This document shows positions 4,107-55,836 of a stretch of DNA of 64,000 nt, piece by piece (position 1 is the first letter of the stretch; the number at the start of each line of letters is the position of its first letter). The notes beneath the pieces were generated by a model. That model did no database searches. It saw only the letters and a list, made by a program, of their open reading frames with translations, and was not told where the DNA came from. The stretch is from the NCBI RefSeq assembly GCF_054482595.1, contig NZ_CM137008.1; one strand, given 5' to 3'. The translations under genes and the position numbers were made by a program.

Positions 4107-4196
4107 CGGAGAGATGCCGGAGCGGCTGAACGGACCGGTCTCGAAAACCGGAGTGGGGGCAACTCCACCGGGGGTTCAAATCCCCCTCTCTCCGCC
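4107..4196 (+). tRNA. serU: tRNA-Ser (CGA), 90 nt with long variable arm; 3' part is the phage attachment core
   Basis: GGAGAGATGCCGGAGCGGCTGAACGGACCGGTCTCGAAAACCGG...GGTTCAAATCCCCCTCTCTCCGCCA; anticodon loop CTCGAAA. Confidence 0.9.
4135..4196. repeat. attL core: 62-bp direct repeat (2 mismatches) shared with attR
   Basis: cggtctcgaaaaccggagt[g/a]ggggcaactc[c/t]accgggggttcaaatccccctctctccgcca found at 4135-4196 and 43190-43251. Confidence 0.85.
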
Positions 4197-4243
4197 AAAA
4201 TTCAATCACTTACACATCATTAAGTCAGTGACAAAAATCACAC

Positions 4244-11213: not shown

Positions 11214-12308
11214 ATGGCTAACGCCTGGCTCAGATTATGGCATGACATGCCAAATGACCCTAAGTGGCGAACAATTGCCAGGGTGTCAGGGCAGCCAATT
11301 GCAACAGTGATGGCAGTGTATATCCACCTCCTGGTGAGCGCGTCACGAAATGTCACGCGAGGTCACATTGATGTCACGACAGAAGATTTGGCAAGTGCGC
11401 TCGACGTGACAGAAGAGGTAATTGATTCAATTTTGCAGACGATGCAGGGGCGGGTACTTGATGGTGATTTAATCACTGGATGGGAAAAACGCCAGGTGCT
11501 TAAAGAGGACAACGGCAATATTTCGCAAACCGCAAAATCTCCTGCAGAGCGCAAGAGGGCGCAGCGAGAGAGGGAAAGAAAGCGGGAACAAAATGGCGAT
11601 TGTCACGGCGCGTCACGAAATGTCACGCACATGTCACGACGAGTCACGACAGATAAAGATACAGATAAAGATACAGATCAAGAAGATCAAAACACTATGG
11701 TCCATGGCGTAAAAAACGCCACGAACCAGGCAGGGGATGTTCAGACCGTCAATCTTGGTCAGCCAGCAGGCACGACACCGGAAGCCGATTCAGCGTATGC
11801 GCTGAAAGCCGATTCGGGCGCTGTGCAGCAGGTGATGACCGCAAGGCTGGAGCAATCACACCAACTGCAGCAGCCCGAAGCCGATTCCGCCATTCAGCGG
11901 GAAGCCGATTCCGCCATTCAGCGGGAAGCCGATCGGGTAGTCCCGGAAAACACCGGGCAGTCTGTGGGACGAGTGGATTATCCGGATGTGTTCGAACAGG
12001 TCTGGCGGGAGTACCCGTTGCGTGCCGGAGCAAACCCGAAGAAATCCGCTTTCAGTGCCTGGAAGGCCAGATTACGCGAGGGGGTGCCACCAGAGGCCAT
12101 GCTGGATGGCGTGAGGCGTTACGCAAGATACTTGGCGGCTACCGGGAAAACGGGAACGGAATTTGTTCAGCGAGCGACGACGTTTTTTGGACCGGACCGG
12201 AATTTTGAGAACCCCTGGTTGCTCCCGGTAAGCGGCACGAACAACCAGCGTTGTGTGAATCATATTTCTGAACCGGATAACGAAATTCCGCCGGGCTTCA
12301 GGGGGTAA
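11214..12308 (+). CDS. Putative replication initiation protein (O-like) with internal repeats
   Basis: ATG 11214 after SD agaagagg; contains two GTCACG iteron-like clusters and coding tandem repeats (DKDTDKDTD, EADSAIQR x2). Confidence 0.55.
   Translation: MANAWLRLWHDMPNDPKWRTIARVSGQPIATVMAVYIHLLVSASRNVTRGHIDVTTEDLASALDVTEEVIDSILQTMQGRVLDGDLITGWEKRQVLKEDNGNISQTAKSPAERKRAQRERERKREQNGDCHGASRNVTHMSRRVTTDKDTDKDTDQEDQNTMVHGVKNATNQAGDVQTVNLGQPAGTTPEADSAYALKADSGAVQQVMTARLEQSHQLQQPEADSAIQREADSAIQREADRVVPENTGQSVGRVDYPDVFEQVWREYPLRAGANPKKSAFSAWKARLREGVPPEAMLDGVRRYARYLAATGKTGTEFVQRATTFFGPDRNFENPWLLPVSGTNNQRCVNHISEPDNEIPPGFRG
11342..11380. repeat. Iteron-like cluster 1: four GTCAC(G/A) at ~10-11 bp spacing
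   Basis: GTCAC at 11342, 11352, 11362, 11373 inside the replication gene. Confidence 0.5.
11602..11650. repeat. Iteron-like cluster 2: five GTCACG at ~10-11 bp spacing
   Basis: GTCACG at 11602, 11612, 11622, 11633, 11643; cgtcacgaaatgtcacgc shared with cluster 1. Confidence 0.5.
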
Positions 12309-18018: not shown

Positions 18019-18094
18019 GGCCCTTTAGCTCAGTGGTGAGAGCGAGCGACTCATAATCGCCAGGTCGCTGGTTCAAATCCAGCAAGGGCCACCA
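18019..18094 (+). tRNA. tRNA with CAU anticodon (Ile2/Met-like)
   Basis: GGCCCTTTAGCTCAGTGGTGAGAGCGAGCGACTCATAATCGCCAGGTCGCTGGTTCAAATCCAGCAAGGGCCACCA. Confidence 0.8.
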
Positions 18095-18095
18095 A

Positions 18096-18172
18096 CCGCC
18101 ACTAGCTCATCAGGAAAGAGCGTCAACCCTTTAAGTTGAGTGTGCGAGGTTCGAGTCCCCGGTGGCGGTCCA
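18096..18172 (+). tRNA. tRNA, anticodon read as UUU (Lys) but loop atypical; identity provisional
   Basis: Acceptor CCGCCAC/GTGGCGG, D and T arms, encoded CCA; anticodon loop CCTTTAA with C at position 33. Confidence 0.55.
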
Positions 18173-18174
18173 GT

Positions 18175-18250
<76 letters not shown>

Positions 18251-18253
18251 TAT

Positions 18254-18328
<75 letters not shown>

Positions 18329-39334: not shown

Positions 39335-42259
39335 GTGAATATGGCAGTAAAGATTTCAGGTGTACTGAAAGACGGCACAGGAAAACCGGTTCAGAACTGC
39401 ACAATCCAGCTGAAAGCAAAACGTAACAGCACCACGGTGGTGGTGAACACGCTGGCCTCAGAAAATCCGGATGAAGCCGGGCGTTACAGCATGGACGTTG
39501 AGTACGGTCAGTACAGCGTTATTCTGTTGGTGGAAGGATTCCCGCCGTCACATGCCGGGACCATCACCGTGTATGAAGATTCCCAACCCGGTACGCTGAA
39601 TGATTTTCTCGGTGCCATGACGGAGGATGATGCCCGTCCGGAGGCTCTGCGCCGTTTTGAACTGATGGTGGAAGAGGTGACGCGTAACGCGTCCGCGGTG
39701 GCACAGAACACGGCAGCCGCGAAGAAGTCAGCCAGTGATGCCGGCACATCTGCCCGTGAGGCGGCAACCCATGCGACTGATGCTGCAGGCTCAGCGCGTG
39801 CAGCCAGCACGTCAGCCGGACAGGCCGCGACTTCGGCTCAGGAGGCGTCTTCCAGCGCAGGAACGGCATCAACAAAGGCCACTGAAGCATCAAAAAGTGC
39901 TGCCGCTGCAGAGTCCTCAAAAAGCGCGGCGGCCACCAGTGCCGGTGCGGCGAAAACGTCAGAAACGAATGCTGCAGCGTCACAAAAATCAGCAGCCACT
40001 TCTGCATCCACTGCGACGACGAAAGCGTCAGAAGCCGCCACTTCAGCCAGAGATGCGGCGGCCTCCAAAGAGGCGGCAAAATCATCAGAAACGAACGCCT
40101 CCACAAGCGCCAGCAGTGCAGCCTCCTCGGCAACGGCGGCAGGAAATTCCGTGAAGGCGGCAAAAACGTCCGAGACGAATGCCAGGTCTTCTGAAACGGC
40201 AGCGGAACAGAGCGCCTCAGCTGCGGCAGACTCTGAGACAGCAGCTGCATCATCGGCCCGTGAGGCGTCCATTAAGGCAGAGGAGGCAGCAGTCAGTGCC
40301 ACCGCCGCCGGAAAATCGGCAGAAAGCGCCGCATCATCCGCTTCAACAGCCACAACGAAGGCTGGCGAAGCCACTGAACAGGCCAGCGCAGCAGCGAGGT
40401 CTGCTTCCGCAGCGAAGACATCCGAAACGAACGCGAAAGCGTCGGAAACCAGCGCAGAATCCTCAAAAACGGCTGCCGCATCGTCCGCCAGTTCGGCGGC
40501 GTCATCGGCATCATCTGCGTCTGCTTCAAAAGATGAGGCGACCAGACAGGCGTCAGCAGCGAGGGGCAGCGCCACGACGGCATCCACGAAGGCGACAGAG
40601 GCTGCTGGCAGTGCGGCAGCGGCAGCACAGAGCAAAAGTACGGCGGAATCCGCGGCAACGCGCGCCGAGACAGCAGCAAAACGGGCAGAGGATATTGCAT
40701 CCGCCGTGGCGCTTGAGGATGCGAGCACGACGAAAAAGGGGATAGTACAGCTCAGCAGTGCGACCAACAGCACTTCCGAGTCACAGGCGGCAACGCCAAA
40801 AGCCGTTAAGGCCGCGTATGACCTGGCTAACGGGAAATACACCGCACAGGATGCAACGACAGCACAGAAAGGGATAGTTCAGCTCAGCAGTGCGACTAAC
40901 AGCACTTCCGAGTCACAGGCGGCAACGCCAAAAGCCGTTAAGGCCGCGTATGACCTGGCTAACGGGAAATACACCGCACAGGACGCTACGACAGCACAAA
41001 AAGGAATTGTCCAGCTCAGTAGTGCAACCAACAGCACATCTGAAACGCTTGCTGCGACACCGAAAGCAGTGAAAGCAGCTAATGACAATGCGAATGGTCG
41101 GGTACCTTCTGCCCGTAAGGTGAATGGTAAGGCGCTTTCAGCGGATATAACACTGACGCCGAAAGATATTGGTACGCTTAACTCAACAACAATGTCATTC
41201 AGCGGTGGTGCTGGTTGGTTCAAATTAGCAACGGTAACCATGCCACAGGCGAGTTCTGTTGTTTCAATTACGTTGATTGGTGGCGCTGGATTTAACGTGG
41301 GGTCACCTCAACAGGCAGGTATATCTGAACTTGTTTTACGTGCAGGTAATGGTAATCCGAAGGGGATTACTGGTGCTTTATGGCAGCGCACATCGACAGG
41401 GTTTACAAATTTTGCCTGGGTCAATACATCTGGTGATACTTACGATATTTACGTTGCAATCGGAAATTATGCGACTGGTGTAAATATTCAATGGGATTAT
41501 ACCAGTAATGCCAGCGTGACGATTCATACGTCACCAGCATATTCTGCTAATAAGCCGGAAGGGTTAACGGACGGTACAGTTTATTCACTCTATACGCCAT
41601 CAGAGCAGTTTTATCCGCCTGGCGCACCAATCCCGTGGCCATCAGATACCGTTCCGTCTGGCTATGCCCTGATGCAGGGGCAGACTTTTGACAAATCTGC
41701 CTACCCGAAACTTGCAGCCGCTTATCCGTCAGGCGTGATCCCTGATATGCGTGGCTGGACGATTAAGGGCAAGCCCGCCAGTGGTCGTGCCGTATTATCT
41801 CAGGAACAGGACGGCATTAAATCGCATACCCACAGTGCCAGTGCATCCAGTACGGATTTGGGGACGAAAACCACATCGTCGTTTGATTACGGCACTAAAT
41901 CCACGAATAACACCGGAGCGCACACCCATAGTGTCAGTGGTACGGCTGCTTCTGCAGGGGCACATACACACACGGTTGCCTGTTACCCATCTGGCAATAC
42001 CGAGCAGGGCGATAAAGCCCTCAAAGGTGCGTCTCGTGCAGGCTCGAGTACTGGCACATCGTCAGCCGGAGCGCATACCCACCCGGTGTCAGGTACTGCT
42101 GCAAGTGCAGGTGCACACGCGCATACTGTCGGTATTGGTGCTCATACGCACTCCGTTGCGATTGGCTCACACGGACACACCATCACCGTTAACGCTGCTG
42201 GTAACGCGGAAAACACCGTCAAAAACATCGCATTTAACTATATTGTGAGGCTTGCATAA
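39335..42259 (+). CDS. stf: Side tail fibre protein with long Ala/Ser/Thr-rich repeat region, three tandem ~41-aa repeats and His-rich C-terminus
   Basis: 974 aa; repeats [25 protein letters not shown]; C-terminal [18 protein letters not shown] repeats. Confidence 0.75.
40735..41100 (+). repeat. Three tandem ~123-bp coding repeats inside stf
   Basis: Units at ~40735, ~40858, ~40981; first two near-identical. Confidence 0.7.
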
Positions 42260-51475: not shown

Positions 51476-52663
51476 TTAGAACTGGTAGACTAAGCCCACA
51501 GCCACGATATCATCGGTAGCGATGCCGTTTTCTTTGTAGAAGTCGTCGTCGTTGTCCAGCAGGTTGATTTTGTAATCAACATAAGTGGACATGTTTTTGT
51601 TGAAGTAGTAGGTCATACCAATATCAACATATTTAACCAGATCTTTGTTGGTGTAATGATGATTACCCTGGCTGTCGAAGTTATCACTATTTACACCGCC
51701 TAAATCCTTACCTTTAGATTGCAGGTAAGCGATGGACGGGCGCAGGCCAAAGTCGAACTGATACTGAGCAACAACTTCAAAGTTTTGGGTTTTGTTAGCG
51801 ATGGCATCAGCATCACCGTAACCAGTCATGTTACGGGTTTCAGCATACATAGCTGCTAAGTAAACGTTATTAGCGTCATATTTAGCACCAACGGTCCATG
51901 CTTCTGCTGTTTCACCGCCAGCAGTTGCATCGAAGCGATCTCCATAACGAATGTTATGCAAACCTTTGTGAACCTGATTGTCAGTACGGTCAGAATTAGA
52001 ATATGCAGCACCCAGACTTAAACCGAAGTCGAAGTCATAGGAAGTGGACATACCGAAGCCGTCGCCGTTCTCTTTAGCTAACTTACGGCCATTACCGTTA
52101 CCAGAACCTTCCTGACCGAATAATCCATCATCTTCATTATTACCCTGATATTGCAAAGCAAAGTTCAAGCCATCGACCTGACCAAAGAAGCCATTGTTAC
52201 GGTAGGTTGCAACACCATTAGCACGACCGTTCATGAAGTTGTCAGCGCCAGCATAGGTATCGCCACCAAATTCTGGCAGCATATCGGTCCATGCTTCTAC
52301 GTCATATACGACACCGTAGTTACGACCATAGTCGAAAGTACCATTCTGACCAAAGCCTAAACCTGCAAATGCCAGACGCGTTGCGGTATTACCCTTGTCG
52401 CTTTCAGGACCGTTTGCGCCAATGTTAAATTCCCACTGACCATAACCAGTGAATTGATCAGCGATCTGAGTTTCACCTTTGAAACCGATACGGGCATATG
52501 ACATGTCGCCATCGCTGCCAGAATCATCAGAGAAGTAGTGCAGACCCACTACTTTTCCGTACAAATCCAGTTTATTACCATCTTTATTATAGACTTCAGC
52601 CGCATTTGCTGCGCCAGCAACTAATAATGCCGGGACCAGCATTGCCAGAACTTTTCTTTTCAT
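51476..52663 (-). CDS. yedS: OmpC/OmpF-family general porin, apparently intact
   Basis: 395 aa from [21 protein letters not shown]; porin-like, C-terminal ...VGLVYQF. Confidence 0.75.
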
Positions 52664-53292
52664 TATGTATTCCCTTGTGATTATAATCTTCATGAATATA
52701 TCAATAAGTGCCGTTATCCAAAAAAAAGCACATTTGGATACTATTCTATGAAGTTCATTTTATTTTAAAGATTACATGTAACAAATGTATTTAAAAGATT
52801 TCAAAATGTTTCTAATCTATTTAATATAATTTAGAATTATGAATTCTAAATATAAATATTCATGAAAATTATAAATGTATATCAATATGTTATGAGTTGA
52901 GCGGAAGCATAGGGGGTATCAATGATTGTTGCGCCAAACGGCTGGTGTGATCACGCGCACATTAATGAAGGCATAAAAAAAAGCCGGCATCATGCCGGCC
53001 CAAAAAATATAAACAAGACGATAAAAGGCTAATAACGGAGGCATCATGACACAGAAAAATAAAAAGGTATAATTGTATTCAGTGCTAATATATTGATTAA
53101 ATGAATTAATAAAGCCGATCTCAAAGATAAATAAAATCGCTCAAAACGATTTTTCCTGTATTCACTGCCGTTGCGCAAAAATTATCTATTTGTTCAAAAA
53201 ATGAGTGAGTCTTGACTGGCTCATCCAATGTGGAAAAATGTGACTTTTATCACATAATAGTACTAAGTCTGAATTTTCCGGGTTATCTCAAA

Positions 53293-53616
53293 ATGGAATA
53301 CGGTTCGACAAAGATGGAAGAGAGACTCTCTCGCAGCCCTGGTGGCAAACTGGCTTTGTGGGCTTTCTATACATGGTGTGGCTATTTCGTCTGGGCAATG
53401 GCGCGTTACATCTGGGCAATGGCGCGTTACATCTGGGTGATGAGCCGGATCCCCGATGCCCCCGTGTCGGGATTTGAAAGCGATTTAGGCTCTACCGCGG
53501 GAAAGTGGTTAGGGGCACTGGTCGGATTTTTATTTATGGCTCTGGTCGGGGCATTGTTAGGCAGCATTGCCTGGTACACCCGACCTCGTCCCGCACGTAG
53601 CAGACGCTATGAATAA
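53293..53616 (+). CDS. yedR: Inner membrane protein YedR-like; start uncertain; contains 21-bp tandem duplication
   Basis: ORF 53212..53616; tctgggcaatggcgcgttaca repeated at 53390-53431 (WAMARYI x2). Confidence 0.5.
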   Translation: MEYGSTKMEERLSRSPGGKLALWAFYTWCGYFVWAMARYIWAMARYIWVMSRIPDAPVSGFESDLGSTAGKWLGALVGFLFMALVGALLGSIAWYTRPRPARSRRYE

Positions 53617-54417: not shown

Positions 54418-55836
54418 ATGCAGGAAAATATATCAGTAACCGATTCATACAGCACCGGGAATGCCGCACAGGCAATGCTGGAGAAACTGCTGCAAATTTA
54501 TGATGTTAAAACGCTGGTGGCGCAGCTTAATGGTGTGGGTGAGAATCACTGGAGCGCGGCAATTTTAAAACGTGCGCTGGCGAATGACTCGGCATGGCAC
54601 CGTTTAAGTGAGAAAGAGTTCGCCCATCTGCAAACGTTGTTACCCAAACCACCGGCACATCATCCGCATTATGCGTTTCGCTTTATCGATCTATTTGCCG
54701 GAATTGGCGGCATCCGTCGCGGTTTTGAATCGATTGGCGGACAATGCGTGTTTACCAGCGAATGGAACAAACATGCGGTACGCACTTATAAAGCCAACCA
54801 TTATTGCGATCCGGCGACGCATCATTTTAATGAAGATATCCGCGACATCACCCTCAGCCATAAAGAAGGCGTGAGTGATGAGGCGGCGGCGGAACATATT
54901 CGTAAACACATTCCTGAACACGATGTTTTACTGGCCGGTTTCCCTTGTCAGCCATTTTCGCTGGCTGGCGTATCGAAAAAGAACTCGCTCGGGCGGGCGC
55001 ACGGTTTTGCCTGCGATACCCAGGGCACGCTGTTTTTTGATGTGGTACGCATTATCGACGCGCGTCGTCCGGCGATGTTTGTGCTCGAAAACGTCAAAAA
55101 CCTGAAAAGTCACGACCAGGGTAAAACGTTCCGCATCATCATGCAGACGCTGGACGAACTGGGCTATGACGTGGCTGATGCAGAAGATAATGGGCCAGAC
55201 GATCCGAAAATCATCGACGGTAAACATTTTCTGCCGCAGCACCGTGAACGCATCGTGCTGGTGGGTTTTCGTCGCGATCTGAATCTGAAAGCCGATTTTA
55301 CCCTGCGTGAGATCAGCGAATGTTTCCCTTCACAGCGAGTGACACTGGCGCAGTTACTGGACCCGATGGTCGAGGCGAAATATATCCTGACGCCGGTGCT
55401 GTGGAAGTACCTCTATCGTTATGCGAAAAAACATCAGGCGCGCGGTAACGGCTTCGGTTATGGAATGGTTTATCCGAACAATCCGCAAAGCGTCACGCGT
55501 ACGCTGTCTGCGCGTTATTACAAAGATGGCGCGGAAATTTTAATCGATCGCGGCTGGGATATGGCCAAAGGTGAGAAAGACTTTGACGATCCGCAGAATC
55601 AGCAACATCGTCCACGTCGGTTAACGCCTCGTGAATGCGCGCGCTTAATGGGTTTTGAAGCGCCGGGAGAAGCGAAATTCCGCATTCCGGTTTCGGACAC
55701 TCAGGCCTATCGCCAGTTCGGTAACTCGGTGGTCGTGCCGGTCTTTGCCGCGGTGGCAAAACTGCTTGAGCCAAAAATCAAACAGGCGGTGGCGTTGCGT
55801 CAGCAAGAGGCACAACATGGCCGACGTTCACGATAA
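54418..55836 (+). CDS. dcm: DNA-cytosine methyltransferase Dcm
   Basis: 472 aa; FAGIGG and PCQPFS motifs; ENVKNL. Confidence 0.9.

Follow-up and report, generated by a model that had tools for sequence, protein, structure and literature searches.

The window, by which we mean the whole 64-kb stretch of DNA analysed here, contains on its plus strand the gene formerly called yedR and now named drpB, whose counterparts in the matching RefSeq genomes are labelled 'cell division protein DrpB'. The gene lies in the order yedS/ompC-like porin gene, drpB, yedJ, dcm, and vsr, and this synteny is kept in the matching RefSeq genomes. The start calls for drpB disagree across databases: TTG, GTG, ATG-22, and ATG-29 (the ATG codons being numbered by the old annotation) give products of 134, 128, 107, and 100 aa, respectively, for the two-copy allele described below. 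The coding sequence beginning at ATG-22 (53293..53616, plus strand) specifies 107 aa here and 100 aa in K-12, and that beginning at the alternative ATG-29 (53314..53316, plus strand), which is used by RefSeq and the NCBI PGAP, specifies 100 aa here and 93 aa in K-12. ATG-22 (53293) is backed by experiment, since start-codon mapping placed the main DrpB start at annotated codon 22; the form starting at M29 is still functional (PMC7648144).

DrpB is a small, non-essential inner-membrane protein with two transmembrane (TM) helices, a short periplasmic loop, and both termini in the cytoplasm; it is found at the septal ring, suppresses an ftsEX deletion when present in multicopy, and shows a synthetic defect with a dedD deletion (PMC7648144). 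When overproduced, DrpB switches on the Rcs phosphorelay by way of the RcsC periplasmic domain, and the substitution R38F weakens both known DrpB activities, a partial loss of function (PMC11709261). The two-copy protein of the window matched the NCBIfam equivalog NF038392 (div_DrpB_YedR) with 147.2 bits, compared with 151.6 bits for the one-copy protein and a cut-off of 50, and its match was broken into two stretches by the insert. The family PF28000 (DrpB) is also precomputed for the two-copy protein; a Pfam scan of the protein gave no family, the scanned copy of Pfam apparently being one without the new PF28000 model. The NF038392 score, the synteny, and the two helices make the gene a clear member of the DrpB family. 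The two-copy protein has been deposited in RefSeq as WP_244462095.1, and no paper describing the two-copy drpB allele was found in our literature search.

At this gene, Tandem Repeats Finder gave a single array at 53390-53437 with a period of 21, 2.3 copies, 100% matches, 0 indels, and a score of 96. The raw letters agree, as the unit TCTGGGCAATGGCGCGTTACA stands in two perfect tandem copies at 53390-53431. On the plus strand, copy 1 (53390..53410) encodes W34-I40 (WAMARYI) and copy 2 (53411..53431) encodes W41-I47, and the translation of the open reading frame across the array reads ...GYFVWAMARYIWAMARYIWVMSR... Copy 2 is treated here as the derived extra copy, which K-12 lacks, as do more than 99.9% of complete E. 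coli genomes, although either of the two units may be called the insert. The perfect, in-frame 21-bp tandem duplication inside yedR that had been reported by the first-pass annotation was thus confirmed by the raw letters, by Tandem Repeats Finder, and by the translation. Because the probability of a perfect head-to-tail 21-mer is approximately 4^-21 (2 x 10^-13) per position, the array is not a product of chance. The 64-kb window contained just one further perfect two-copy array of at least 20 bp, at 11877-11933, within the presumed prophage.

Directly 3' of the second unit lies TCTGGG (53432-53437), which forms part of the string TCTGGGtgATG (53432..53442, plus strand), identical to the start of the unit at 9 of 11 bases. 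The same annotation had read this string as a diverged partial third copy. The string does exist, but it is not a decayed copy: since one-copy genomes (for example, L002) carry it too, it is the ancestral downstream flank, consisting of the downstream direct repeat TCTGGG plus tgATG.

Several features of the surrounding DNA were also observed. A segment of approximately 39 kb (4213-43190), located directly 3' of tRNA-Ser(CGA) (4108-4197), is missing from the otherwise near-identical genome of EC-JS426. It has its own tRNA cluster (Met, Lys, Thr, and Gly; 18019-18328) and a prophage tail fibre annotation in relatives; the most likely identity of the segment is that of a serU-integrated prophage. 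The region 11601-11933 of this presumed prophage holds tandem repeats of 10 bp x 5.0 (11601-11651), 12 bp x 2.9 (11649-11683), and a perfect 24 bp x 2.4 (11877-11933), and a 132-bp unit is repeated 2.3 times with 92% identity at 40734-41037, near the presumed prophage end, in what is a tail-fibre region in related genomes. Upstream of drpB, the porin gene (approximately 51500-52600, annotated as ompC or porin) is hypervariable, with more than 100 differences per kb between haplotypes; its product has 357, 395, or 404 aa depending on the haplotype, and in the K-12 derivative L002 the gene has become a pseudogene.

Copy number was examined among complete E. coli genomes with several nucleotide queries. 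K-12 drpB contains one unit. When a 489-bp query covering the full region was used, 4903 complete genomes aligned over most of it, and all but three of them spanned 467-468 bp instead of 489 bp. A 42-nt probe corresponding to exactly two units, which has no more than 27 exact bases in common with one-copy genomes and thus falls short of the 28-base word size there, matched 3 of 5426 complete genomes (EC-JS426, LR025096, and CE-O153H30), giving a frequency of the two-copy allele of approximately 0.06%. Queries of 91 nt and 110 nt were confounded with respect to copy number, because two overlapping pieces were joined and one-copy genomes also reached 100% coverage. With a three-copy probe, no genome matched better than the three two-copy complete genomes, and a 48-nt junction probe for the reciprocal deletion matched 0 of 5426 complete genomes.

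Exact-sequence look-ups were also carried out among approximately 15 billion proteins. The two-copy protein was recovered with each of the four starts, namely in 105 contig observations for the 100-aa form from the PGAP ATG (M29), 98 for the 128-aa form from the old GTG, 6 for the 107-aa form from M22, and 172 for the 134-aa form from TTG, counts that overlap in that one assembly may be counted under several annotations. One variant of the two-copy protein (P0028) has an additional W-to-R substitution, and all two-copy loci compared contain two exact units. In the same collection and on the K-12 protein background, no three-copy protein was found with the M29, M22, GTG, or TTG start, no zero-copy protein with the M29, M22, or GTG start, and no four-copy protein with the M29 start, the only one searched for that number. 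The first-pass annotation had called the array a likely slipped-strand variation site, a suggestion that would fail if all strains carried the same two copies. Strains do differ, with one copy in K-12 and two in 3 of 5426 complete genomes, and the duplication is recurrent, being present on five haplotypes as described below. The suggestion is thus supported, with the refinement that one and two are the only states seen and that two copies are, judging from the genomes surveyed, the rare derived state, one copy being the norm.

Hardly any differences separate the three complete two-copy genomes from one another or from the window between 43190 and approximately 55300 (3 SNPs in 12 kb), and this suggested a single clonal origin of the duplication. 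This reading was overturned by loci from draft assemblies. For the comparison of haplotypes, the repeat unit was collapsed, and 5.85 kb around the repeat (4000 bp upstream and 1850 bp downstream) was compared among complete and draft loci. The two-copy loci grouped into five clades of local haplotypes, with 38-399 SNPs between clades across the 5.85 kb. Clade A comprises the window and L003, L004, L006, L010, L012, L019, L020, and L022, and is separated by 1-3 SNPs (10 for L019) from its nearest one-copy genome, PSS-07 (L017). Clade B1 (L005) differs by 0 SNPs from C7 (L015), clade B2 (L008, L013, and L021) by 1 SNP from A38 (L018), clade C (L007) by 0 SNPs from S42 (L014), and clade D (L009) by 1 SNP from NCTC9080 (L016). 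All five of these nearest one-copy genomes are complete genomes. Two further loci, L011 and L023, were left out of the clade assignment on account of their short upstream sequence, and both match clade A downstream of the repeat. In a neighbour-joining tree, every two-copy locus paired with its one-copy counterpart. Because each of the five distant haplotypes has a one-copy genome within 0-3 SNPs of it, the simplest reading of these data is that the duplication arose independently at least five times.

Haplotype A accounts for most of the two-copy contigs, and most of the two-copy observations therefore represent clonal inheritance and not new events. The two-copy clone is widespread, having been found in a human in Germany, in a wild bird in Hong Kong, and elsewhere. 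Two copies have been kept across haplotype-A genomes despite the SNPs and the recombined flank that set these genomes apart, and the one-copy genomes 1-3 SNPs away may be ancestors or revertants. This retention, as far as the genome comparison indicates, argues against rapid switching. From approximately 55300 onward (dcm, vsr, yedA, and beyond), SNPs between the window and the other haplotype-A genomes are far denser, at tens per kb instead of 3 per 12 kb, beginning as a cluster at 55311-55419 within dcm. Owing to this recombination breakpoint at approximately 55300, the strain of the window is regarded as a mosaic relative of the haplotype-A clone.

A direct-repeat scan of the reconstructed one-copy coding sequence showed that one-copy genomes have TCTGGG at both ends of the unit with a spacing of 21. 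Such a hexamer at both ends of the ancestral unit is the signature that a slipped-strand, microhomology-mediated duplication would be expected to carry, and we consider it very likely that the two-copy form is a rare natural drpB allele made by a replication error of this kind. In the proposed course of events, the nascent strand would copy the second TCTGGG, unpair, and re-pair with the first TCTGGG. The 21 bp between the hexamers would then be copied again, which would give a perfect head-to-tail duplication without filler or scar. The reading frame remains intact because 21 is a multiple of 3. Once formed, the two-copy allele offers a 27-bp perfect tandem homology, which would be expected to collapse to one copy much faster than the 6-bp homology expands. 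Two causes probably hold the allele at its very low frequency: this fast collapse, and a longer helix 1 that would at best make no difference to a protein the cell can do without. For a near-neutral allele, the observed frequency of approximately 6 x 10^-4 would be roughly equal to the ratio of the forward to the reverse rate.

A hairpin that aids slippage was also considered as a contributor. However, single-stranded DNA folds of both strands of the one-copy region and of the two-copy region were no more stable than those of shuffled sequences (z-scores of 0.23, 0.54, and 0.28), and hairpin-assisted slippage was rejected with these z-scores of 0.2-0.5. The drpB site thus appears not to be special beyond its 6-bp repeat. 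The gene has eleven direct repeats of at least 6 bp, three of which coincide with natural in-frame indels. The strongest is the 8-bp repeat CTGGTCGG (53518-53525 and 53542-53549, spacing 24) in helix 2. Among public E. coli proteins, an 8-residue deletion at this repeat was found in P0130, P0134, P0046, and P0043 (12-40 contigs each), and an 8-residue duplication at the same repeat in P0036 and P0149 (4-5 contigs). A 12-residue deletion (P0048) maps to a GGGGCA repeat with a spacing of 36, likewise among the strongest in the gene. Further indels in drpB are a 14-residue duplication in helix 1 (P0031), which is other than the WAMARYI event, and a 33-residue deletion (P0073). The site may be called slippage-prone on the basis of homoplasy among database genomes. 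The reciprocal deletion, which would be expected from the same microhomology, is missing; this could mean that selection shapes the surviving alleles, and it is weak evidence with five or more events scored.

The effect of the insertion on the protein was examined by structure prediction. The duplicated residues W34-I40 (WAMARYI, M22 numbering) lie in the periplasm-proximal half of helix 1 and include the conserved R38. With AlphaFold2, run with homologue alignments, helices were predicted at residues 16-44 and 55-88 for the one-copy protein and at 16-51 and 61-95 for the two-copy protein; the mean pLDDT of 66-68, with approximately 80 in the helices, corresponds to moderate confidence. Helix 1 was longer in the two-copy model by exactly seven residues (two turns), and helix 2 and the hairpin were kept. 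Consistent with this, the hydrophobic stretch L20-M43, which has 24 residues and one Arg, becomes one of 31 residues with two Arg. These models suggest that the insertion does no more than lengthen helix 1 by 7 residues.

Among 26 homologues (from Escherichia, Citrobacter, Klebsiella, Lelliottia, Atlantibacter, Kluyvera, Phytobacter, and others), helix 1 is constant in length and the WAM.RY.W motif shows good conservation. Since helix 1 shows no length variation across the 26 homologues, the insertion departs from a conserved length. Approximately 516 of the 5426 complete genomes had no match to the drpB region (53212-53616). In the one such genome inspected, MLI104K2 (L024), the porin gene and drpB are gone between hchA and a frameshifted yedJ. 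By these matches, roughly one strain in ten seems to have lost drpB. Because DrpB is non-essential, the gene is missing in approximately one in ten genomes, and helix-2 deletions that look destructive occur at contig counts comparable to those of the duplication, the two-copy allele is probably neutral to mildly hypomorphic.

An alternative reading of the recurrence is that the heptad duplication alters DrpB function, for instance its divisome interaction or the triggering of the Rcs or Psp stress responses, and has been selected repeatedly in parallel. The apparent number of origins, at least five, the wide distribution of one two-copy clone, and the fact that the reciprocal deletion was never found would all agree with selection, and the duplicated segment has the conserved R38, whose mutation changes both DrpB activities (PMC11709261). 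If this were true, the longer TM1 and the doubled Arg38 would re-tune the contact of DrpB with its partners or with the RcsC sensor. The allele is nevertheless confined to approximately 0.06% of complete genomes, and TM1 is invariant in length in the 26 homologues of other genera. Moreover, other in-frame drpB indels that are apparently destructive occur at similar contig counts, and the absence of drpB from approximately one-tenth of complete genomes points to relaxed constraint and not to selection for a new function. We therefore regard repeated positive selection as unlikely, and recurrent slippage remains the preferred account.

The presence of the duplication on five haplotypes might instead reflect a single origin followed by spread through homologous recombination in very short gene-conversion tracts. 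E. coli does recombine, the window itself has a breakpoint approximately 1.9 kb downstream of the repeat, and the marker-free intervals of 120-680 bp around the repeat could hold a short tract. The four backgrounds other than clade A, however, each have a one-copy genome 0-1 SNP away across 5.85-7.8 kb, so that at least four separate micro-tracts would be required, each bounded within 120-680 bp and each with a donor allele that is present in less than 0.1% of the population. In the loci examined from the other lineages, no short imported tracts with haplotype-A-specific SNPs were seen beside the repeat. Recurrent slippage at the flanking microhomology is far more parsimonious, and spread by such micro-tracts is considered quite improbable.

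A tandem array in the coding sequence of an envelope protein, with a copy number that varies among strains, could also suggest a programmed contingency locus, in which high-frequency switching of the repeat produces phase or antigenic variation of a surface-related function. Only two states were seen, however, and never more than two copies; an in-frame unit cannot turn expression on or off; the two-copy state has been stably inherited in a clone that gathered SNPs; and the segment is buried in an inner-membrane helix instead of being exposed at the surface. A contingency locus is accordingly a highly improbable explanation, and the drpB repeat is an ordinary, rare recurrent slippage polymorphism. 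Finally, although assemblers can miscount tandem repeats, we give almost no credence to an assembly or sequencing artefact, which was rejected on the grounds that the 42-bp array is shorter than a read and fits inside one, and that three closed genomes, as well as hundreds of draft assemblies produced independently in different laboratories, show two copies.

The two-copy allele represents naturally occurring length variation in a divisome protein that activates Rcs and has only recently been characterised; the variation falls in the helix that bears Arg38, and the allele could be used to probe the effect of TM1 length on DrpB function. It also provides an example of homoplasy, since typing or phylogeny based on indels could be misled by a 21-bp duplication that five backgrounds share. 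That drpB gathers in-frame slippage alleles and is lost in approximately one in ten genomes fits its non-essential, weakly constrained status. The practical value of the finding is small, and no new mechanism or system is revealed by it.

Duplications and deletions between short direct repeats are classical in E. coli, both among spontaneous lacI events and where short tandem repeats undergo RecA-independent slipped misalignment. The drpB event resembles them in that the ancestral gene has TCTGGG at both ends of the unit, in that the duplication is precisely head-to-tail with a unit length equal to the repeat spacing, and in that both duplications and deletions occur at the other direct repeats of the gene. 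It differs from the classical lacI work in the nature of the evidence, which is population-genomic (homoplasy across lineages) and not that of a selection assay, and from classical microhomology events in that duplication alone, and no deletion, was found in nature at the TCTGGG pair. A particular parallel is the CTGG hot spot of lacI, where gain or loss of 4 bp at three tandem CTGG copies gives frameshifts. At drpB as well, slippage has very probably occurred at CTGG-containing repeats, and the same mutation has recurred; the lacI hot spot, however, is a pre-existing three-copy tetranucleotide run, whereas the drpB repeats are of 6 bp with 15 bp between them, and their product is a 21-bp in-frame duplication.

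With contingency loci and the coding VNTRs used for MLVA, drpB shares an in-frame tandem repeat within a coding sequence and a copy number that is variable among strains. Those loci switch at high rates and exist in many alleles with many copies, whereas at drpB more than 99.9% of genomes have a single copy, the maximum is two, and there is no expression switch. Compared with DrpB of K-12 (PMC7648144; PMC11709261), the gene and its synteny are the same, the protein is identical outside the insert, and the two-helix topology is predicted to be kept; what distinguishes the allele of the window is the extra WAMARYI heptad in helix 1, which gives two copies of Arg38 and a protein of 107 aa instead of 100 aa.
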